This document shows, one piece after another, positions 2,854 to 12,857 of a DNA stretch of 64,000 nucleotides (within the stretch, counting starts at the first letter, position 1; each line of letters begins with the position of its first letter). A program made the translations under genes and the position numbers. The stretch is from Eubacteriales bacterium (GTDB lineage Bacteria; Bacillota; Clostridia; Oscillospirales; CAG-272). The notes under the pieces are model-generated. The model saw only the letters and a list, made by a program, of their open reading frames with translations, was not told where the DNA came from and made no database searches. The stretch covers positions 2,128-66,127 of the forward strand of contig JAZSFM010000033.1 of the NCBI GenBank assembly GCA_045532215.1, read 5' to 3'.

Positions 2854-5111
2854 ACGGGTTCTCCTTTCGGCAAGGCGTGCCCTGCTGCCTCCTTTACGGA
2901 AACGGGAGATTGGGTGTTGCCATCGATCATGCCCATATAGAACGCCTCAAGCGGAACACCGCTTTCCTTGATTTCGGCAACAGTCTTGGTGCAAAGGATT
3001 TGTCCCTTGCGGATAATTGCAATGCGATCGCAAATGTTTTCTACAACGTCGATGATATGGCTGGAGAAGAATACGATATTGCCGCGAGATGCGTGCTCTT
3101 TCATGCATTCCTTAACTTGGAAGATAGATTCGGGGTCAAGACCTGTCAAGGGCTCGTCCAAAATCCAAATCTTGGGATTGTGAACCAATGCCGACATAAT
3201 CGTGATTTTTTGTTTCATGCCGTGCGAGTAGGTCTTCATCGGGTTATCGATAGCCGTTTCCAAACGGAATCTCTTTACGTATTCGGCAATGCGCTCGTCG
3301 CGATCTTTGCGAGATACGTTATAAAGGTCGGCAATGTAGTTGATATATTCTCTACCTGTCAAGTTTTCGTAGAGTGCGTAGTGGTCCGGCACAAAGCCAA
3401 TCTGCATCTTTGCCTCAACCGACTGTTTTTCTGCATCGTAACCCGAAATTTCAATTTGTCCCGAGGTGATGGTCTGAATACCAACAATCGACTTGATAAT
3501 GGTAGATTTACCTGCACCGTTGGGACCGAGGAAGCCAAAGATCTGGCCACCGTCAATTTCAAGGTTTGCCTTGTAAACCGCATAAACGTCGCTGGTGGAA
3601 TATCGTTTTGAAAAATCACGAAGGATCAACTTGCCTTCGTTTTGGGGATTCATAGGTTCCTGCATACTGCGTCCTGCAAGTTGTGCTTCAAGTGCAAGTC
3701 TATCTGCCTTGATCTTGCGGTTCCTTTCTGTAATAATTGCGTAGGTATCGGTAATTTCAAACGCCTGCTCATAGAGAAACCACATAGCAAACGAAAGCAC
3801 TATGTAGACTACAAAGTAGAGCGATTGATATACGGGATATATCAAAAGATTCAGATCTGCGAGTTTGAACTCAAATGTAATTTTGCGCAAATTCTCCGCC
3901 CAAGAGCCGAGCTTTTCGGCAATAAAATCGGAGTTGATGAAGAAGAAGTCAACCGAAAATCCTTTTGCAGTGAGCCAAGCGTTCATAAAAAGAACGAGCA
4001 AGTAGTATCCAAAGAATGCTACCAACGAGTAGATGAACTGCTTCATCTTGGGACGGTTGAAAATTCTCAAGCTCATCAAAAGCACGGGCAACATCATTGC
4101 CATATAGTGGTTACACCAAAATTGCAAAGACCCTGACGAAAGCCATCCGATGTCATCACCGATATTCGGCATGATCATTGCAAAGAATGCGCCAAGCACG
4201 TTGATGAAGATGGTAAAGTAGTAGAGCTTTTCCATTTTGAAAATCAACACCAAGGGAATGATGAACATTGCCGTGTTACAAAGGTGCAACGGCCATTGTT
4301 CCAAGCTGATAAAAACAGAAAAATCGTAATTGTAGCAGAAGGAAATCATTGTTGCCATACTGATGTAGAGGAGTGCGAATCTTCTTTGCTCGTACTCGCA
4401 TTTGGCAAACAAAAAATGCACCGCCAATGCAAATATAACCGATCCATAAAGCACAAGTCTGTGAGCCAATGTGAAATCGTTTATGATAATTGCGTCATTT
4501 CCCTTGCCGAAAATGGCTTGCGGTACCCAATGAGGCAATGCCATAAGCATCATACCCGCAAAAATCGCCAACGTTTTTAACAACTTTACAAACTTGAAAG
4601 CAGGGCGTCTCTGCCTTGTAATTTGATACAGAGCCAAAGCCAGTCCCACACCAAGCTCAATGGCAAAGATGAGGAGTCGGTAATGGAAGCCGTCTGCCAA
4701 GTCTCCGTCCTGCGCGCGGTTGAGGATAGGCAGTGCTGCAATAGAACCCGCGTAAACCGCAAATGCTGCATAGCGTGCGATAGGTGCTACAAGTGGGATA
4801 TGTTTTTCAAAAAACGGGTAAAGGATTGCCGCAAGCTGCACGGTGTAAATCAGCCAAAACAATGCAGCCGACAAAACGACCATTCCCCCACCCTGCGGGC
4901 CGAACGGAGAATAAACGTTGAGACCGATGGTGGATTGAATGAGCGGCTTTCCGCCAAAGAAACGGACAAAAAAGAGCGCCGAATAGATCAGCGCTACCAA
5001 CCGTGCGTTGCTCAAGCGCTCTCCAAAGATGTTCTTATTTCGCAAAAAGAATAAGAAAGCAAAAATTAACAAGCAGGATGCCAACGCGGCACCGTAGTAG
5101 AGATAGGTCAA
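2850..5111 (-). CDS. Fusion protein: about 480-aa polytopic membrane domain (YwaF/TMEM164-like, WPLHLCN motif) plus C-terminal ABC-2-type ATPase
   Basis: Walker A GPNGAGKST, signature-like YSHGMKQK, Walker B ILDEPLTGLD, H-loop SSHI. TTG start at 5111-5109 with GGAGGA 7 nt upstream. Confidence 0.8.
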   Translation of the reverse strand: MTYLYYGAALASCLLIFAFLFFLRNKNIFGERLSNARLVALIYSALFFVRFFGGKPLIQSTIGLNVYSPFGPQGGGMVVLSAALFWLIYTVQLAAILYPFFEKHIPLVAPIARYAAFAVYAGSIAALPILNRAQDGDLADGFHYRLLIFAIELGVGLALALYQITRQRRPAFKFVKLLKTLAIFAGMMLMALPHWVPQAIFGKGNDAIIINDFTLAHRLVLYGSVIFALAVHFLFAKCEYEQRRFALLYISMATMISFCYNYDFSVFISLEQWPLHLCNTAMFIIPLVLIFKMEKLYYFTIFINVLGAFFAMIMPNIGDDIGWLSSGSLQFWCNHYMAMMLPVLLMSLRIFNRPKMKQFIYSLVAFFGYYLLVLFMNAWLTAKGFSVDFFFINSDFIAEKLGSWAENLRKITFEFKLADLNLLIYPVYQSLYFVVYIVLSFAMWFLYEQAFEITDTYAIITERNRKIKADRLALEAQLAGRSMQEPMNPQNEGKLILRDFSKRYSTSDVYAVYKANLEIDGGQIFGFLGPNGAGKSTIIKSIVGIQTITSGQIEISGYDAEKQSVEAKMQIGFVPDHYALYENLTGREYINYIADLYNVSRKDRDERIAEYVKRFRLETAIDNPMKTYSHGMKQKITIMSALVHNPKIWILDEPLTGLDPESIFQVKECMKEHASRGNIVFFSSHIIDVVENICDRIAIIRKGQILCTKTVAEIKESGVPLEAFYMGMIDGNTQSPVSVKEAAGHALPKGEPV

Positions 5112-5192
5112 TGTATTTTCCTCCCGGGAAATTTTTTCAAAAAATCAGCCCCTATTTCGCTAAAAAAGGACTGATTTGCAATGTTTCGACTT

Positions 5193-5269
5193 TGGTCGGA
5201 GTGACAGGATTCGAACCTGCGGCCTCTTGGTCCCGAACCAAGCGCACTACCAAACTGTGCCACACCCCG
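5193..5269 (-). tRNA. tRNA-Pro (anticodon CGG), CCA encoded
   Basis: Reverse complement is CGGGGTGTGGCACAGTTTGGTAGTGCGCTTGGTTCGGGACCAAGAGGCCGCAGGTTCGAATCCTGTCACTCCGACCA. It folds by hand into a cloverleaf: 7-bp acceptor stem, anticodon loop TTCGGGA, T-loop GGTTCGAATCC. Confidence 0.9.
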
Positions 5270-5307
5270 AGAATGTTCCCTCTACCTTTTTTGTTGCCCT
5301 GTGCGAT

Positions 5308-5383
5308 TGGTGAGGGGACCGAACCGCCGAGTGCCGCTTTTGCGGCGCGAGGCTTCGCACATACCAAACTGTGCCACACCCCG
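5308..5383 (-). ncRNA. 76-nt tRNA-sized, tRNA-Pro-derived element (proximal copy) with a non-canonical fold
   Basis: The first 22 nt are identical to the tRNA-Pro 5' end and it ends in ACCA. The centre is a GC hairpin, GCCGC-AAAA-GCGGC. I found no anticodon arm or full acceptor pairing by hand. Confidence 0.4.
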
Positions 5384-5422
5384 AGAATGTTCCCTCTACC
5401 TTTTTTTGTTGCCCTGTGCGAT

Positions 5423-5498
5423 TGGTGAGGGGACCGAACCGCCGAGTGCCGCTTTTGCGGCGCGAGGCTTCGCACATACCAAACTGTGCCACACCCCG
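5423..5498 (-). ncRNA. 76-nt tRNA-sized, tRNA-Pro-derived element (distal copy), identical to 5308-5383
   Basis: Base-for-base identical to the proximal copy, and followed by the same 38-nt spacer. Confidence 0.4.
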
Positions 5499-5609
5499 AT
5501 TGTAGTTGTTACCGTTATTTTGTCACCTTGTGAAAGCGGTCACAAGAACGATTCTTTTGTGACGGAAATTTGTTGGTTTTGTGAAGACCTTTCAAATCAT
5601 TACTATGAC

Positions 5610-5638
5610 ATTATACCACAGCACTGTCATTTTGTCAA
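5610..5638 (-). promoter_or_regulatory. Sigma-A-type promoter driving the tRNA-like/tRNA-Pro array
   Basis: On the minus strand: TTGACA (5638-5633), 17 nt, TATAAT (5615-5610). Confidence 0.7.
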
Positions 5639-5763: not shown

Positions 5764-8730
5764 TTATCTTTCAACGATAAAGGTTCCATAAGCAATGGTT
5801 TCGTTGTTTCCAAAATCGTATCCCTCGAATACGATGTAATCCTCGTAAACGTGCACGATATGTCCGATGTCGGAATACGCCAACGAAGGAACATGAACAA
5901 GCGTCGCATATTCTCCACCATACGTGTTGATCATACGGTCAGCGCGTGTTTCATCAAATATCCTTTCGAAGGTTTCATGTGAATGTCCGTTGAGGAAAAT
6001 AATGTTTGTGTATTGCTTGAAATAAGCATCAAAACGCTTATAATCCTCTGTTTTTTCCATCATCAATAGGGTTGTGTTGTTAAAGTGCCCTACCTTATTC
6101 TCCATTTCAGTGTGGAAGAAGAGGAACACGGTGCGATCCTTATATTGCTCCAAACGATCTCCCAACCAATCGAGCTGATAATCATCCATCAAACGCGAGG
6201 TTGTTTTACCGTAATCGTAATAGACCTGATGCAAGAAGATGATCACACTGCCGTCGGGCAGTTCCACAACGTAGTCGAGGTCATTATCTTCGGTGTAAAT
6301 CGCTTGAAAATCGGTTTGATACTCAACAATATTTCTTGCGTACGTATCATACCATTCTCGTGAAAATCCCGTATATTTCGCCTCATGGTTGCCACTAACC
6401 GTATAGATAGGCATGTTGGGATTCATGGCATAAATTTCTTTGATTGCCTCACCGTGCAAGTAATATTCACGCTCGGTATTGTTGGTCGCGATATCACCGT
6501 TGATGCCTATCAGAATAGCGCCCTTTTGCGAAAGAATTTCGCCGGCGTTAATCAATCTGTCAAAGGACTTCGTCTCGGGGCCGTAACGCGTACCCTGATG
6601 TGTATCGGCAAGCGCACCAAAGTTGTAAAGTTCCTCTTGCGTGAACAATTGTTCAGCAGGAATATCAAACGAATAGGTATAAGAGCCGCTTTCGCTTACC
6701 GCAATAAGACAGCTTGCTCCTTTGGGAATTGCCGTGTAAGAGTGAATGGAAACCTCGGCAAATACGCCTTTTTTCAAGGGCACGGAATGGAGATAGGAAT
6801 AGTTTGGCAAAATGCCGTCGGCATTGCCCCAATAGAGGTAATAGGTTTCACTGCTTTCGGCAATCAAAGAAACGCTGCCGCCGGCAAAGCCGGGGGTGTC
6901 ATAGGTGAAAACGTAATCGATGATGCCAACTCCGGGGTTATCCTGTCCGCAATAGATGCACACGTCATTTTCATAGGTATGCACCTGCGTTGCGGGAACA
7001 GTTTCGATATAACGCTCACCGCAATCGCAAACGTAACTGATTTTGCCATCGGTAATGCAGGTTTCCTCTTGAATAACAGCTTCGAAGGAAAGGGTATGAA
7101 AATGGAGCTCACCAACCTTGACAAAGTAAAAATCACGGTAGTGCTGACACTTATCACTTGCCGATGCGGTAGTTATGTCAATGATATTCTCGCCCGCAAG
7201 CAATTTGACACGGATGCCGTACATATACGTGCCTTCCGTAGTGTCTCTTACGGTCTTATAATCGGTGCCCGCAAACGCGTGCGAGGTTTCGATAACTTGC
7301 TCATACAGGGTGCCCGCGTTGACGGTGTATTTTGCACCGCGGTTGTCTCCGTCTTTTAGACGAAGATACAAAACCATTTCATAAACACCCGTTTCGGGAG
7401 CAGTAACGCGGTAGACGAGATGCTGCGAGCCGTTGCTTGCAACATACCAATGCTGAATGTCGGCAGTTGTTGTTACGTTCACTGCGGTGGAAAGCGTTGT
7501 GTCATAGTCTCCTGCCCACACGTGCACAGAATCCTTTGCTTGGAAAATGTCAAGAAGCTCGGTGGAGAAGAAATAAATATCATCGCTTCCGTTACCGTCG
7601 TTATCGTACGTTGAGGAAACAGAGGTCATTTGCAGCTCTTTTTGACCACACGTACTACAAATTCCGCCCGAGTAGGTGTGCTCACGGGTTGCGGGAATAA
7701 CAGAAGTCTTGGTCTTGCCGCACGCACAATGGATGTTTTTGTATCCAACCTCACCACAGGTAGGCGTCTTGAGGACATCCCCCTCCTCATAGCGGTGGGA
7801 GTGGAATGCATCCACCTTTACAAAATAAAAATCTCTGTAGTGTTGGTTTTTGGGAGATGCGGAAGATTGCTCAATTTTGATCAAATTCTCTCCCTCTACA
7901 AGGTTGAGACGAATACCGTACATATAGGTACCAAGGGTACTTTCATCGCGGACGGTCAGATATCCGTCTTTTTCCGCAAAGGAATGCGAAGTTTGGAACA
8001 CTTGCTCATAATCGGTGCCCGCATTGACGGTGTATTTTGTGCCGCGCTCCTTGCTGTCCTTCATACGCAGATGGATCGCCATCTCATAAACGCCTGCCTC
8101 GGGAACGTTCACGCGGTAAACAATATACTGACCCGGGTCTTCTACATACCAATGCTTAATGTTTACAAACGTAGCACTTCCGACACTGTCGGAGGAAAGC
8201 GCGTCGTCGTAATCACCTGCCCAAACGTGCGTGCCGTTTTGGAAAGTGGTGAAGAGCTGTGTGGAAAAGTGATAAACATCGTTTTTACCGTCTCCGTCGG
8301 CATCATACGCCGATGGAACAGGCGTAAGCCCGAGAGAAGGATCGACTCCCCTACACCATACGCAGGATGTACCAGCGTATTGGTGAACCCCCGTTGCGGG
8401 AATCTTCGTTACTTCAGTCTTCCCGCAGGTACAGTCAGCTGTTTTTTCACCCTCTTCTTGACATGTGGGCGATTTTGTAACTGTTGGGTTCTCAAAAATG
8501 TGCTCGTGCGGTGGTTGCTCGGGAGTGGTTACATCCGGAGTAGTAACGTCGGGAGTGGTTACATCGGGAGTAGTCACTTCAGGTGTCGTCTCTTTCGGAG
8601 TAGTCACCGTTGGGGTAGTTGCTACAGGTGTTGTTTCCTGGGGTGTTGTTTGATTGGCAGAAAAATCACCGAACGTACAGCTACAGAGCAAAAGTGCCAA
8701 AACAAAAGCTAAAATATATATACGTTTCAT
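5764..8730 (-). CDS. Secreted lipoprotein (988 aa): Thr/Pro linker, three Cys-rich modules, two beta-sandwich (CBM-like) domains, C-terminal calcineurin-like metallophosphoesterase
   Basis: Signal peptide and lipobox MKRIYILAFVLALLLCSC. Metallophosphoesterase motifs ADTH, NGD, GNHE, FFH, GHSH. Confidence 0.8.
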   Translation of the reverse strand: MKRIYILAFVLALLLCSCTFGDFSANQTTPQETTPVATTPTVTTPKETTPEVTTPDVTTPDVTTPDVTTPEQPPHEHIFENPTVTKSPTCQEEGEKTADCTCGKTEVTKIPATGVHQYAGTSCVWCRGVDPSLGLTPVPSAYDADGDGKNDVYHFSTQLFTTFQNGTHVWAGDYDDALSSDSVGSATFVNIKHWYVEDPGQYIVYRVNVPEAGVYEMAIHLRMKDSKERGTKYTVNAGTDYEQVFQTSHSFAEKDGYLTVRDESTLGTYMYGIRLNLVEGENLIKIEQSSASPKNQHYRDFYFVKVDAFHSHRYEEGDVLKTPTCGEVGYKNIHCACGKTKTSVIPATREHTYSGGICSTCGQKELQMTSVSSTYDNDGNGSDDIYFFSTELLDIFQAKDSVHVWAGDYDTTLSTAVNVTTTADIQHWYVASNGSQHLVYRVTAPETGVYEMVLYLRLKDGDNRGAKYTVNAGTLYEQVIETSHAFAGTDYKTVRDTTEGTYMYGIRVKLLAGENIIDITTASASDKCQHYRDFYFVKVGELHFHTLSFEAVIQEETCITDGKISYVCDCGERYIETVPATQVHTYENDVCIYCGQDNPGVGIIDYVFTYDTPGFAGGSVSLIAESSETYYLYWGNADGILPNYSYLHSVPLKKGVFAEVSIHSYTAIPKGASCLIAVSESGSYTYSFDIPAEQLFTQEELYNFGALADTHQGTRYGPETKSFDRLINAGEILSQKGAILIGINGDIATNNTEREYYLHGEAIKEIYAMNPNMPIYTVSGNHEAKYTGFSREWYDTYARNIVEYQTDFQAIYTEDNDLDYVVELPDGSVIIFLHQVYYDYGKTTSRLMDDYQLDWLGDRLEQYKDRTVFLFFHTEMENKVGHFNNTTLLMMEKTEDYKRFDAYFKQYTNIIFLNGHSHETFERIFDETRADRMINTYGGEYATLVHVPSLAYSDIGHIVHVYEDYIVFEGYDFGNNETIAYGTFIVER
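8512..8646. repeat. Coding 15-bp tandem repeats (TTPxV Thr/Pro linker)
   Basis: Repeated GGAGTGGTTACATC(C/G)GGAGTAGT units encode VTTPD/VTTPE. Confidence 0.8.
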
Positions 8731-8766
8731 TTTTCGCCTCCTTAAACTTGAAATGTTATCTCATTT

Positions 8767-10386
8767 TTAGGAAATGGAAACAAGTGCAGGATATTGAACC
8801 GAATTGGTTCCCTCAATTTCAACGCCGAACAAAGCGGCAATGGTTTTGGGGATTTGAATGTTTTCAATGGTTTTTCCATCAAACACATCGGCATCGGCTC
8901 CGTAAGCAAATACAGGAACATTGGTAGGCGTGTGGTCGCCTGTTGTGTAGTAAAAATCGCCATTTGCCGCAATTTGCAAACCACCCGTTTCGTGGTCGGC
9001 GGTGATGATGACCATCGTGTCGGGGTTGTAGAATGCATACTCCATAAACAGACCGATTGCCTGATTGAAGCGCACCATTGCCAAATATGCCTCGGCGGCA
9101 CGGTTGTTGTGGCAATGTTTATCGATATACGCTTCTTCGTACATCATAAAGAAGCCATCCTCATCAAGGGAAAGTGTATTCAAAGTTCTTGTAATCGCGG
9201 CACGGAGTGCCATTATCTCTGCCTCGGTGTAGAAATTATAATTGCAATCAATGATTGTTCCGTATTGTTCGACCAATGCTGCCTGTGTTGCCAAAATGGC
9301 ATCTCCATCACCGCGGGTGTTCGCGTGTGCCGAGAAGGACGCGGGGGTTGCACCCGTTTGCCCCTCGGTGGACATAACGGCGGTGGCTTTGCCCTTTTGG
9401 GCTGCAAGCTCGGTAAGAGACGGAACGTCTTTCAAATTGCCATCCTTACCAATATAGCCGTTAACGGTCTTGTACCCCGAAGAGAGCGCGGTTCCTGCGG
9501 CGGCACTGTCGGTCGTGCCGGAGAGCGAATTGGTTCTTGCCTCGCCAATGTAGGGGAACAGATAACCATAGAAGAAATCTTCACCGTCACTGTAATTGGC
9601 AATGTTCGAATCTTTATACGCCTCAAAGAGTTTTGTTTGGTTAGGACCCATACCGTCACCGATGAGCAAAATGAAGTTTTCTGCCTTTTTGACAATCGGT
9701 GTGCAAATTGTGGTGGTTTGCGGTACGTCTGTATCAAAAATGGAGTCGGGGATGTAGGTTTCCACAAAATAGTAAGCCGCCGCGGCAATGATGAAGTAGT
9801 CCCCTTCCATTGCAATGTGATCCTCGTTAGCAAGGAATGCAAATTCAAATCCTTTGGTTGTAGCATCAAGACTTTGCGAAATGGGACGAACCGTTTCTCC
9901 TACAACGATTTCGTGCGCATTTACTGCATCGGATGCTTCAATAGACATTACCGAAAGTGTGATACCCGTACGCTTTTCAATCTCGTCTGCGATATACTCT
10001 GCGGCACGAACCGTGTAAGCCGATGCGTGCTCATCATAAACAACGACGTAAGAGGAAAGCGGATCGCCGCACAAGGTGGGCTCTTGAGGAGTGGTTTCTT
10101 CGGGCGTTGTAACTTCGGGCGTTGTAACTTCGGGAGTTGTAACTTCGGGAGTTGTGACTTCGGGAGTTGTGACTTCGGGAGTCGTGACTTCGGAAGTTGT
10201 TTCTACCGAAGTGGTTTCTCCAGGAGTGGTTTCAGCAGGTGTAGTGGCTACAGGGGTTGACACAGTGGGCGTGGTTCCTTCTGTAGCAGGAGGAGTGTCT
10301 TCGGGTGTTGACTTACACGCAGTCACAACAGCTAAAACGAGTATCGCCAAGCAAAGCAGTACGACGATTTTGAGCATCTTTTTCAT
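8767..10386 (-). CDS. Secreted lipoprotein alkaline phosphatase (PhoA family, 539 aa)
   Basis: Signal peptide and lipobox LAVVTAC. Alkaline phosphatase motifs GDGMG, TDSAAAGTA (Ser nucleophile), EEAYIDKHCH, TADHETGG, GDHT. Confidence 0.85.
   Translation of the reverse strand: MKKMLKIVVLLCLAILVLAVVTACKSTPEDTPPATEGTTPTVSTPVATTPAETTPGETTSVETTSEVTTPEVTTPEVTTPEVTTPEVTTPEVTTPEETTPQEPTLCGDPLSSYVVVYDEHASAYTVRAAEYIADEIEKRTGITLSVMSIEASDAVNAHEIVVGETVRPISQSLDATTKGFEFAFLANEDHIAMEGDYFIIAAAAYYFVETYIPDSIFDTDVPQTTTICTPIVKKAENFILLIGDGMGPNQTKLFEAYKDSNIANYSDGEDFFYGYLFPYIGEARTNSLSGTTDSAAAGTALSSGYKTVNGYIGKDGNLKDVPSLTELAAQKGKATAVMSTEGQTGATPASFSAHANTRGDGDAILATQAALVEQYGTIIDCNYNFYTEAEIMALRAAITRTLNTLSLDEDGFFMMYEEAYIDKHCHNNRAAEAYLAMVRFNQAIGLFMEYAFYNPDTMVIITADHETGGLQIAANGDFYYTTGDHTPTNVPVFAYGADADVFDGKTIENIQIPKTIAALFGVEIEGTNSVQYPALVSIS
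10078..10308. repeat. Coding Thr/Pro linker with about 7 near-perfect 15-bp repeats (EVTTP)
   Basis: GTTGTAACTTCGGG(C/A) repeats are visible at about 10095-10195. Confidence 0.85.
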
Positions 10387-10424
10387 AATTTTTAACTCCT
10401 TTTACTTCATTTTGGGGAGCGTTT

Positions 10425-12857
10425 TTATTTTTCGATGATGTAGGTTGCGTATGCAAATGTTTCTCCTTGCACGAATTCGTAGCCCTCAAATACGATGCAA
10501 GTTTCATAGACGTGTACGATATAGCCCTCGGAACGGCCGTTGCCGCTGCCTACCAGAACACGGGGAGTGGAGCAAGCAGGAATGTGTACCATGGTTGCAT
10601 AAGTGCCATCTTTGTCGTCGATGTTCTTGTCATAATTGGTCTTGCCGGGCTTGGGTGTAACCAACTGCGCGTCAAATGCCCAGTGGGAGTGACCGCTGAA
10701 ATAAACTACGTTTGTGTACTTTGTAAAGTATTCGTCAAATTTCTGATATTCCACGGTAGAGCTGATCATGGGCAGACCGTACTCGTTTCCGTTTGTGCTT
10801 GCGTCGCCTACTTGCTCATCCATAAAGGTGTGGAAGAAGAAGAACACGGTTCTATCCTTATACTGTTCCAATCTTCCCTCCAACCACTCAAGCTGATAGT
10901 CGTCAACAAGACGAGAGGTCGAATAACTGTAATCGTAATACTTTTGGTGGAAATAAATCATAACACTTCCATCCGGAAGTTCAACTACATAGTCAAGTTC
11001 ATTACCATCAAAATAGAGATAGGTCAGGTCGCTATCGTATTCCACTACGCTGCGTGCATATTGCATATACCAATCGTAGGAGAAGCCCGTGTATTTTGCT
11101 TCGTGGTTACCCGTTGTGGTAAAGATGGGCATATCCGGAGCGAAGCCGTAGATCTCTTTGATGGCTTTTTCGTGCAAAATGTATTCGGATTCTTCGTTGT
11201 TGTAGGAGAAATCGCCGCAAATACCAATGGTGATAGCGCCCTTTTCGTAGAGCACCTTGGCAGCATTGACAAAATGGTTGTAAGGAATGGATGTTGAGCC
11301 ATAACGAACACCTTGGTGTGTATCCGAAAGTGCGCCAAAGACATAAAGTTCATCTTCGGTCAGCAGACGCGTTGCGGGGATTGTGTAGGAATATGTGATT
11401 GTTTTATCACCGCTAACGGCAATGAGACGGGTTGCTCCCTTGGGGATAGCGGTAAAGGACTGAATGGTAACTTCTGCTTCTATATTGGCTGCAAACTCGT
11501 CGGAATATAGCATGGTGTAATCCTTGAGTTGCCCGTTGGCATCTGCCCAATAAAAGGTGTAAACGTCATCGGTTTCGGGCAGGAAAGTCAATGTACCGCC
11601 TGCAAATCCGGGCTTGTCATAAAGGAAATCGTACTCGAGAATGCCTGCGGGAACGTAAACTCTGCCGCATCCTGTGCAAACTTCATTTACATAGGTGTGG
11701 TTATTGGTTGCGGGAAGAATTGTTGTTTTGGTCAAACCGCAAGAGCAGGTTGCAACCTTTTCACCGTCTGCACCGCAGGTCACTTCTTTGGTAACGGTTT
11801 CGTTTTCAAAACTGTGAAGATGGAACTCGCCAACCTTTACAAAGTAGAAATCACGGTAGTGTTGACACTTGGGGCTCTTGGAAGATTGCTCAATCTTGAT
11901 AATATTCTCACCTGCAACAAGGTTAACACGGATACCGTACATATAGGTGGTTAAGGTTTCAGGGTCGCGCATTTGTGAGCAGTTCATACCCGTGTAGCCG
12001 TAAGAGGTTTCAAATACTTGTTCGTTATCGGTGCCGGGATTGACAGTGTATTTTGTTCCGCGTTCTTGGTCATCCTTCATACGGAAATGAATAGCCATTT
12101 CATACGTACCCGTTTCGGGAACGGTTACTTTGTAAAGGATGAATTCAGCAGGGTTTTGGTTCTCGGTTACGTACCAGTGGTAGATTTTGGATGCCTCTGC
12201 TCTGCTGACACGAGACTCAGGCATATAATCTCCCGCCCAAACATGAACACCATTTTGGAATTCTTCGAGCAATTTGGTAGAGAAATTGTAAACCTCCTTC
12301 TTTCCGTCACCATCAGCGTCGTAAACGGAGGGAGAAGCATACAGCGGAATGGGGCTATAGTTGCACCACATGCAAGCACCGTTGAAATAGTTGTGCTCGC
12401 CCGTTGCGGGGATGATGGTCGTTTGCGTGTCGCCGCAAACAGAACAGGTAACAGATTCTATGCCCGCTTTGGCGCAGGTAGGTTTCTGCGTTACAACAGG
12501 TGACTGATACGCGTGTTCACCGGTAACGTCAAAGTTGGTTTCTATCGTCTCACCACAGGAACACACCTCTCTTTTTAAGCCGGGCTGTGTGCAGGTGGGC
12601 TCAATGAAAGTCTCTGTTCTGAAATTGTGTACATGAGGTTGTTCAGAGGGAGTTGTTTCTGCAGGAGTTGTGTCTGCAGGAGTTGTGTCTGCAGGGGTTG
12701 TGTCTGCAGGGGTTGTGTCTGTAGGGGCTGTTGTTTGGGGAGTTGTTTGTGGAGTTGTTTGTTGGGGACCTTGCGTGGTGTAATTTTCAAAATCCCCTTC
12801 AAGACAACTGCAAAGCAATAGCGCTAAAAGGGCAAGTAAAAGACATATTTTTTTCAT
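10425..12857 (-). CDS. Secreted lipoprotein (810 aa), paralog of 5764-8730: TP linker, Cys-rich modules, one CBM-like domain, metallophosphoesterase
   Basis: Signal peptide and lipobox LLALLALLLCSC. Motifs SDTH, CGD, GNHE, FFH, GHSH. Long collinear similarity to the 988-aa protein. Confidence 0.8.
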   Translation of the reverse strand: MKKICLLLALLALLLCSCLEGDFENYTTQGPQQTTPQTTPQTTAPTDTTPADTTPADTTPADTTPAETTPSEQPHVHNFRTETFIEPTCTQPGLKREVCSCGETIETNFDVTGEHAYQSPVVTQKPTCAKAGIESVTCSVCGDTQTTIIPATGEHNYFNGACMWCNYSPIPLYASPSVYDADGDGKKEVYNFSTKLLEEFQNGVHVWAGDYMPESRVSRAEASKIYHWYVTENQNPAEFILYKVTVPETGTYEMAIHFRMKDDQERGTKYTVNPGTDNEQVFETSYGYTGMNCSQMRDPETLTTYMYGIRVNLVAGENIIKIEQSSKSPKCQHYRDFYFVKVGEFHLHSFENETVTKEVTCGADGEKVATCSCGLTKTTILPATNNHTYVNEVCTGCGRVYVPAGILEYDFLYDKPGFAGGTLTFLPETDDVYTFYWADANGQLKDYTMLYSDEFAANIEAEVTIQSFTAIPKGATRLIAVSGDKTITYSYTIPATRLLTEDELYVFGALSDTHQGVRYGSTSIPYNHFVNAAKVLYEKGAITIGICGDFSYNNEESEYILHEKAIKEIYGFAPDMPIFTTTGNHEAKYTGFSYDWYMQYARSVVEYDSDLTYLYFDGNELDYVVELPDGSVMIYFHQKYYDYSYSTSRLVDDYQLEWLEGRLEQYKDRTVFFFFHTFMDEQVGDASTNGNEYGLPMISSTVEYQKFDEYFTKYTNVVYFSGHSHWAFDAQLVTPKPGKTNYDKNIDDKDGTYATMVHIPACSTPRVLVGSGNGRSEGYIVHVYETCIVFEGYEFVQGETFAYATYIIEK
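12636..12779. repeat. Coding 15-bp tandem repeats (TTPAD linker)
   Basis: GCAGG(A/G)GTTGTGTCT occurs 4 times around 12655-12720. Confidence 0.8.

Follow-up and report, generated by a model that had tools for sequence, protein, structure and literature searches.

In a 64,000-nt stretch of DNA (the window), the leader of a tRNA-Pro(CGG) gene carries two identical copies of an RNA unit. We interpret them as a conserved, lineage-specific leader module that arose from a 3'-truncated duplicate of that same tRNA gene and is probably an RNA released from the tRNA precursor, possibly by RNase P, a reading that, taken whole, we hold with moderate confidence. The identity and the evolution of the module are well supported, and its function is inferred. 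The units are a conserved three-hairpin RNA module, and they are neither tRNAs nor tRNA mimics. We propose to call the module the "5' tRNA-linked repeat".

The locus occupies positions 5139 to 5638 of the window and is read on the minus strand. Its features are as follows.

5610 to 5638, minus strand: promoter TTGACA-17-TATAAT with an extended -10 TG, sigma-70-type, 12/12 matches
Near 5603, minus strand: putative transcription start
5499 to 5603, minus strand: leader of ~105 nt, a hairpin followed by CA-rich UUCACAAAACCAACAAAUUUCCGUCACA, forming the conserved 5' part
5412 to 5498, minus strand: unit 1, structured part (covariance model, 112.8 bits; consensus fold; MFE; pair counts)
5497-5493 with 5468-5464, minus strand: P1 of unit 1, GGGGU paired with GCCUC
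5489-5472, minus strand: D hairpin of unit 1, GCACA...UGUGC
5463-5446, minus strand: P2 of unit 1 (GC hairpin)
5442-5418, minus strand: P3 of unit 1, with the loop CCCCUC at 5432-5427 and the tail ACAGG
5384 to 5411, minus strand: A-rich spacer 1, its sequence varying between species
5297 to 5383, minus strand: unit 2, identical to unit 1 (covariance model, 111.2 bits)
5348-5331 and 5327-5303, minus strand: P2 and P3 of unit 2
5270 to 5296, minus strand: A-rich spacer 2, lacking one A of spacer 1
5193 to 5269, minus strand: genuine tRNA-Pro(CGG) (ARAGORN; Rfam RF00005, 66.4 bits)
5139 to 5176, minus strand: terminator-like hairpin AAUCAGUCC / GGGGCUGAUU with a 16-nt loop and a U run, kept in orthologous loci
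5111, minus strand: start (TTG) of an ABC-fusion gene, 28 nt past the terminator-like hairpin

Much of this layout had been described in an earlier note, and direct reading of the sequence bore out its consensus promoter, the identity of units 5498-5423 and 5383-5308, the match of their first 22 nt to the first 22 nt of tRNA-Pro(CGG), and the canonical tRNA downstream. Its leader of about 110 nt is present, at a length of ~105 nt, and its 38-nt spacer, said to occur twice, proved to be a near-identical pair: counted to the unit boundary used there, the spacers are 39 and 38 nt long and differ by one A within an A-run, giving repeats of 114/115 nt. Tandem Repeats Finder reported a period of 115 with 2.3 copies and 98% matches at 5243-5499, and a 33-mer specific to the units occurs exactly twice in the 64-kb window, where 0 occurrences are expected.

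The units lie between the promoter at 5638-5610 and tRNA-Pro(CGG), an interval with no terminator, and from this layout they would be transcribed together with the downstream tRNA. The hairpin at 5176-5139 was missed by our terminator scan because its loop exceeds 8 nt, and folding confirmed it as a hairpin; a promoter scan found no promoter-like site between the tRNA (5193) and the ABC gene (5111). The other two tRNAs of the window, Arg-ACG and Pro-GGG, are plain single genes with short leaders, and the arrangement is therefore special to tRNA-Pro(CGG). The neighbours of the locus are phosphoesterases and an ABC operon, and integrase or mobile-element genes are absent.

Folding of the unit gave a consistent picture: RNAalifold on ten units and the MFE structure of a 91-nt unit agreed on P1 and the D hairpin, followed by P2 and then P3, and the same layout holds for the module across 23 orthologous loci from related Ruminococcaceae-type genomes, a group of gut Clostridia. 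The folding z-scores are modest (-1.6 to -1.9). In the predicted fold, P1 joins the acceptor 5' strand to a surrogate strand, GCCUC, and the resulting acceptor-like helix stacks on the D hairpin, whose stem is extended to 5 bp (GCACA/UGUGC) by an extra U inserted after nt 22. The GC hairpin with an AAAA loop seen earlier corresponds to P2. P3 has the form GCGGUU-C-GGU / ACC-AAUCGC, with a conserved loop nCCCUC and a tail ACA(A/G)G, and the conserved element continues to ...AAUCGCACAGG. This is 11 nt past the boundary drawn in the earlier note and gives a total of about 86 nt; the impression that each unit is exactly of tRNA length was thus an artefact of that boundary.

The same fold reassigns two motifs that had been taken for tRNA parts. 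The "T-loop-like" GGTTCGGTCC is one strand of P3, the T arm being absent, and the ACCA in which the unit seemed to end is the other strand, with no free CCA end. The two sequences (GGTTCGGT and ACCAATC in the DNA, GGUUCGGU and ACCAAUC in the RNA) pair with each other as the strands of a single hairpin. That no canonical 7-bp acceptor stem can form, as had been suspected, is correct, and the surrogate helix GGGGU/GCCUC (5 bp) is the only one available. A 7-bp acceptor stem, a T arm and a free 3' end are thus all missing from the unit.

We considered whether the unit might nevertheless fold as a tRNA or part of one and act as a mimic or decoy that titrates a tRNA-binding enzyme, a toxin or a T-box. 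It does retain the acceptor 5' strand, the D arm and a CGG triplet (within GGUUCGG), some related leaders contain units with an intact UUCGGGA anticodon loop, and a precedent exists in the tRNA-Other of Bacillus cereus, which lies within a larger regulatory RNA (PMC3399842). However, Rfam gave no tRNA match on the units even at E<=10, and no Rfam family of any kind matched them at the gathering threshold or at E<=10; ARAGORN called no unit as a tRNA in the window or in 14 related loci covering all unit types, the real tRNA-Pro(CGG) being the only call on this locus. The inserts of 18 loci with other unit types likewise gave no match to Rfam. The T arm, free 3' CCA and 7-bp acceptor stem are absent, and in the window's kind of unit (type A) the CGG triplet is buried within the stem of P3. 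The suggestion that the units are tRNA mimics in fold thus fared poorly, and we regard a decoy role as very improbable. A processing scaffold, another of the readings first offered, is viable and is the one that we favour.

To collect relatives, we scanned for the D-arm pattern with one genome per species, which yielded at least 120 tRNA-Pro(CGG) loci. The matches listed all come from Clostridia MAGs (labelled Eubacteriales, Acutalibacteraceae, Oscillospiraceae or Ruminococcus). Of the matches listed, about 85 have a promoter 40-60 nt upstream, i.e., an ordinary short leader, and among them are more than 80 related species in which the same tRNA is expressed behind a leader of just 10-20 nt. 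Roughly 28 of the matches listed have long leaders with units derived from the tRNA 5' part, and these units are of several quite different kinds. Further loci were obtained from contigs encoding homologues of the downstream ABC-fusion protein, whose more than 100 orthologues are 71-100% identical to it and annotated Ruminococcaceae bacterium; a metagenome scan for P3 added just one further locus. Loci were taken as orthologous when they shared the promoter, the leader start, the tRNA and the terminator. The linkage of tRNA and ABC gene is conserved, and synteny holds across species. The 23 orthologous loci divide as follows.

At least one full unit: 15/23 loci (the window, L118 and L125 have two copies, L126 at least two)
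P3 only: 5/23 loci
Variant P3: L089
No unit: L114
Entire leader replaced: L128

A covariance model built from 13 units gave scores that fell into distinct classes. Full units scored 99-113 bits, the diverged units of L032 and L077 73-74 bits and P3-only copies 32-40 bits, while real tRNAs scored 20-31 bits. The model found no module outside this leader in the 64-kb window and 135 loci. A genome-wide REP-like repeat was accordingly discarded as a candidate, since within that same range the matches were confined to this leader.

The collected loci gave a consensus fold with compensatory changes in P2 and P3. Pairing holds in 99.6% of the cells of a structural alignment of 15 units, with changes on both sides in 5 pairs, 4/6 P2 pairs among them, although such pair counts are inflated by the relatedness of the sequences and by the fitting of the alignment to the model structure. 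The closing pair of P2 in this alignment is GC in 9 units and AU in 6. None of 500 shuffles reached the observed values on 4/5 measures; the fifth, the number of further pair types, was reached by 479/500. Controls slid out of register paired at 25-50%. For P3, 98.6% of positions are paired over 16 distinct copies, and 3 pairs have changed on both sides. P2 stays a hairpin even though its sequence and loop vary freely and its register shifts, as in L131 (CGCCA/UGGCG) and L133 (CGCCG-CUUU-CGGCG). Hairpin-templated (quasipalindrome) mutation could lie behind some of the paired changes in P2 without selection on the RNA. P1 and the long-range pairings lie beyond covariation testing because their columns are invariant.

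Across species, the unit-specific part (after nt 27) is conserved at an identity of 0.89, compared with 0.52 for the spacer of the same repeat, a value that is near random for A-rich sequence. Within one genome, copies and spacers alike are near-identical. Gene conversion cannot preserve the unit-specific sequence because the tRNA has no counterpart to it. From these comparisons, the conservation across species of GAAGCCUC, CUCGGC, P3 and the P2 hairpin must, in our view, require purifying selection. The earlier note had offered recent duplication and selection as alternative explanations of the near-identical repeats. Both apply: recent duplication shows in the identity of the two copies and in copy numbers that vary among close relatives, and selection in the cross-species conservation, with compensatory changes, of the unit-specific sequence and its hairpins.

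The contents of the leader differ between close relatives. Full copies per orthologous locus range from 0 to at least 2, in addition to decayed lead copies. L130 and L131 encode an identical ABC protein and have identical spacers, with 0 full units in the former and 1 in the latter; L127 and L128 also encode an identical ABC protein, and L127 keeps the leader while L128 has the replacement. L133 and L134, the nearest relatives of the window, have one full unit behind a decayed lead copy, as against the two units of the window. The module is dispensable, being absent from L114 and L128, the latter of which keeps the tRNA, the terminator and the ABC gene without the leader. In promoter-proximal copies (L125, L129 and L133), the 5' part and P2 have decayed and P3 has been kept; P3 outlasts the decay of these copies, and this marks it as the module's apparent core. 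The promoter and the leader start are conserved across the orthologous loci, and at the position where the leader of the window reads ...ACCGCUUUCACAAGG, L133 and L134 have an intact P3, a comparison suggesting that the 3' part of the window's leader is probably itself a decayed lead copy.

The units could instead be neutral debris, i.e., a functionless tRNA-Pro pseudogene, truncated at its 3' end, whose copies come and go by slippage or unequal crossing-over and are simply tolerated in the leader. Such a history would fit the polymorphism of copy number between near-identical strains, the lack of the module in L114 and L128, the visible decay of lead copies in L125, L129 and L133, the more than 80 species among the matches listed that do without such a leader, and the identity of the window's copies, which speaks for recent duplication. 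It does not account for the excess of unit-specific identity (0.89) over spacer identity (0.52), for which gene conversion offers no explanation, nor for a P2 that varies in sequence and register yet always forms a hairpin, a P3 whose pairing is kept through double changes, and the persistence of P3 where the remainder has decayed. We consider neutral debris unlikely.

That the units derive from tRNA-Pro(CGG) and precede the real tRNA, in what would be a single transcript, was supported. P3 probably descends from the anticodon arm, judging from the match between the tRNA (GGUUCGG-G-ACCAA) and the unit (GGUUCGG-UCCCCUC-ACCAA). In the history that we propose as the simplest, unequal crossing-over inside the shared 22 nt would add and remove units and would hold their first 22 nt equal to the tRNA, while the extra U and all sequence 3' of it would pass down among the units alone; purifying selection would preserve the hairpins, and promoter-proximal copies would decay except for P3. 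Since unequal crossing-over adds and deletes copies, strains with 0, 1 and 2 copies would be explained.

Units of other types provide a wider context. Some keep an intact UUCGGGA anticodon loop, and in one the D loop holds a structured insert of ~130 nt. The tRNAs of L088 and L104 break off after the anticodon loop, with foreign-looking sequence behind them. Several otherwise unrelated unit types have the extra U or a D loop of the same length, a trait that never occurs in the real tRNA; this suggests an old common origin, with the caveat that the search pattern biased which units could be recovered and that a fifth D-stem pair would also account for the extra U. Most unit types, in their MFE folds, offer the acceptor 5' strand a surrogate partner nearby: GCCUCG in type A, ACCUCG in L084, AUACUUCG in L024 and L033, CGCUUCG in L064, and, in type B, CCCCG or CCUCG. 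With this pairing, each unit is predicted to open with an acceptor-like helix on the D hairpin.

Partial tRNA genes are also left by integrating elements, as has been reviewed (PMC9897764), and we considered whether the units are attL/attR remnants of an integrase-borne element that targets tRNA-Pro. Integration is a common origin of partial tRNA genes (PMC9897764), and the broken tRNAs of L088 and L104 would suit it. On the other hand, the locus has no integrase or mobile-element gene beside it and keeps its synteny from species to species; the units copy the 5' part of the tRNA, whereas the 3' part is usual; and an 88-nt "remnant" that is conserved with compensatory changes is not decaying. 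Searches for the units or the pattern gave 0 hits in viral contigs and no match in phage and plasmid collections, and a phage or plasmid origin was accordingly rejected. An integration scar is, in our judgement, barely plausible.

Several observations bear on what P3 might pair with. Its CCUCACC is complementary (6/7) to the GGUGUGG that starts every unit and the tRNA, and decayed lead copies offer GGUGAGG or close variants instead, with 6-7 of 7 positions complementary to CCUCACC. P3 always lies no more than ~65 nt upstream of a CGGGGUG start, with a spacer of 25-48 nt between. Spacer 1 carries GGUAGAGGG, which is complementary to the P3 loop and 3' strand (CCCUCACC) and whose pairing with P3 competes in the MFE structure of unit plus spacer; this motif is present only in the window, L133 and L134. 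In these predicted pairings, the C-rich P3 element looks like a pairing hub.

Three other candidates were tried and rejected. An alternative helix, UGUGCGA/UCGCACA (7/7), is broken by changes in the first copy of L118 that improve P3. An anti-Shine-Dalgarno seed, with the P3 loop set against the ribosome-binding site of the downstream gene, amounted to only 4 bp. Finally, the extra U creates an ATG that opens an 81-codon ORF through the units; one-nucleotide indels in P2 change its frame among species, and this ORF is therefore not coding.

The pairings of P3 would also suit a leader that acts in cis, by shielding the spare acceptor 5' strand from mispairing with the real tRNA, by guiding the co-transcriptional folding or the processing of the tRNA, or by tuning read-through of the weak terminator into the ABC operon. 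For such a role one can cite the local surrogate strand predicted to pair with the 5' strand in most unit types, the CCUCACC/GGUGUGG complementarity at 6/7 (6-7 of 7 in decayed lead copies), the constant position of P3 within ~65 nt of a CGGGGUG start, and an ABC gene that has no promoter of its own after the tRNA in a conserved tRNA-ABC linkage. Against it, short leaders suffice for the same tRNA in most species among the matches listed, in L128 the tRNA, the terminator and the ABC gene persist although the leader has been replaced, and the long-range pairings fall in invariant columns, on which covariation has no bearing. We think a purely cis-acting leader plausible but unlikely.

Our preferred reading, release of the units by RNase P, can be formulated as a mechanism. 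Cleavage by RNase P can be directed by a helix of ~12 bp capped by a loop, and the predicted stack of P1 on the D hairpin shares the shape of such minihelix substrates; unlike them, the unit has no 3' RCCA and contains internal mismatches. We propose that RNase P, in addition to cutting the precursor at the 5' end of the tRNA (5269), would cut at the 5' ends of the units (5498 and 5383), directed by the acceptor-like/D minihelix, which would imitate the stack of acceptor and T stem. The leader would thereby be diced into stable RNAs of ~115 nt, whose dose would track copy number. The exposed C-rich loop of P3 would be the active part, pairing with G-rich sequences, and one candidate partner would be GGGGUGUGG, with which both the next unit and the tRNA begin. 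A bolder extension is that these leaders form an undescribed class of RNAs in gut Clostridia, in which the 5' minihelix of tRNA-Pro(CGG) serves as a portable RNase P site, P3 is the active part of the small RNAs, copy number sets the dose, and the other unit types (in about a quarter of related species, among the matches listed) carry different cargoes. This extension we offer tentatively, as possible rather than probable.

If the proposed mechanism is true, the locus would be a natural tRNA-derived scaffold that releases small RNAs from a tRNA precursor, and changes of copy number between strains would amount to a quick adjustment of dose. Even if the module is non-functional, it would be a clean case of concerted evolution because unequal crossing-over, as we propose it, keeps the 5' 22 nt identical to the tRNA. 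Annotators are warned that tRNA-like leaders may hide ahead of tRNA genes, and the covariance model, together with the collected loci, makes the question testable in gut metatranscriptomes.

We found no description of the module in Rfam 15 or in the literature searched, and several known systems resemble it in part. The tRNA-Other of B. cereus is a pseudo-tRNA within a larger regulatory RNA (PMC3399842) and, like the units, is tRNA-derived and embedded in a larger RNA; it is not functional in translation. It differs in that it has a predicted cloverleaf and stands alone beside a genomic island, whereas the units fail tRNA models, are in tandem and lie in the leader of their parent tRNA. 3'ETS-leuZ, cited in PMC8144298, is a precedent for a spacer-derived sRNA. 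Like the putative unit RNAs, RNAs of this type are by-products of pre-tRNA processing that may be stable and may act by base-pairing, with a dose tied to transcription of the tRNA, but they come from 3' or internal spacers and have experimentally shown targets, whereas the present units form a repeated 5' leader.

The closest known system is that of the tRNA-linked repeats of E. coli; both consist of short repeats in a tRNA transcription unit that carry ~18-22 nt of a tRNA end. We take the E. coli set to include rtT/tyrT and rrA/rrB/rrF, and to our knowledge no function has been found for these repeats since 1978. [quoted passage not shown] They are co-transcribed and processed, and their function is largely unclear (PMC8144298). 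The present units similarly lie, on the co-transcription that we infer, within a tRNA transcription unit and in tandem, with 0 to at least 2 full copies per locus. They differ in having no homology to the sequence or structure of rtT RNA (no Rfam family at E<=10) and no sequence similarity to the E. coli repeats, in belonging to another phylum, and in possessing covarying hairpins of their own. [quoted passage not shown] If they are processed and stable, they would represent in Gram-positives, on the 5' side, what the tRNA-linked repeats are in E. coli.

Leader units of other kinds, also derived from the 5' part of tRNA-Pro, were found in about one quarter of the 120 species sampled (among the matches listed). 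They occur in the following tRNA-Pro(CGG) loci of related Clostridia genomes, numbered with an L:

L031, L055, L069, L109; L024, L033, L116; L007, L058; L073, L092; L026, L042; L013, L014; L064; L084; L104

Their hairpin inserts are located in either the D loop or the anticodon stem. The UUCGGGA anticodon loop is retained in many of the units, and the acceptor 3' strand is missing from all. None was called as a tRNA by ARAGORN in 14 related loci that cover all unit types. Further features were observed at tRNA-Pro(CGG) loci:

L008, L088, L095 and L120, leaders upstream of tRNA-Pro(CGG): conserved insert of ~130 nt within the upstream pseudo-tRNA copy, in its D loop
L088, from ~288 down, minus strand: interrupted tRNA-Pro(CGG)
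L104, 2126-2242: interrupted tRNA-Pro(CGG)

The D-loop insert (GGGACGUUUGCGACCGCCGCCGGUGGCGGAU.AAGGGAGCAAUAAGGAGUGGCAGUGACUUGG...CUUAGUCACAACAG) is structured-looking, and an Rfam search with it returned no match. In L088 and L104, it is the tRNA-Pro(CGG) itself that is broken, directly 3' of its anticodon loop (TTCGGGA|CTCAATCACC...), and the interrupting sequence is common to both loci. About 200 nt further on, L088 has a second, different tRNA-Pro(CGG) paralogue. Candidate explanations for the interruption are an intron, integration of an element, or replacement of the gene.

In the window, the A-rich spacer 3' of each unit carries GGUAGAGGG, which is complementary to CCCUCACC of P3, the last hairpin of the unit. 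When a unit is folded together with its spacer, the MFE structure has this pairing in place of P3:

5390-5398, minus strand: GGUAGAGGG, spacer
5276-5284, minus strand: GGUAGAGGG, spacer

The spacers of the closest relatives, L133 and L134, also contain GGUAGAGGG; this complementarity was not seen in the other species. Two mechanical ORFs, 81 and 107 codons long, cross the units and the tRNA (5247-5492 and 5152-5475, respectively, minus strand), with an ATG that arises from the extra U inserted after nt 22 of the unit. Their frame is not conserved between species, and they were therefore rejected as genes and considered artefacts.

The locus is flanked on the minus strand by the following genes:

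5111 (TTG start), minus strand: ABC-fusion gene, 753 aa, YwaF/TMEM164 domain plus ABC ATPase
5764-12857, minus strand, upstream: cluster of three large secreted-type phosphoesterase/phosphatase genes, namely Metallophos plus Golvesin_C-like domain (988 and 810 aa) and alkaline phosphatase (539 aa)

In the interval 5111-5192 (minus strand), the ABC-fusion start codon lies 28 nt 3' of the terminator-like hairpin of the tRNA, and a promoter scan of the window found no promoter-like site between the tRNA and this gene. The linkage of the tRNA and the ABC gene is kept across species, even with a differing upstream gene. Transcription that starts at the tRNA promoter and reads through may be what the ABC operon relies on.

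A second promoter-like site, GTGACA-16-TACAAT (10/12), is present in the leader directly 5' of unit 1 (5499-5526, minus strand); it is probably a chance match, because its sequence is confined to the leader of the window. The leader start (5545-5603, minus strand) is conserved independently of the units, at the same position in at least 20 orthologous loci. In it, a hairpin, which reads GUGAAG..CUUCAC in relatives, precedes the CA-rich sequence AAAUCCAACAAAUUCCUAUCACAUU. This arrangement is loosely reminiscent of the boxB/boxA antitermination leaders of rRNA operons.
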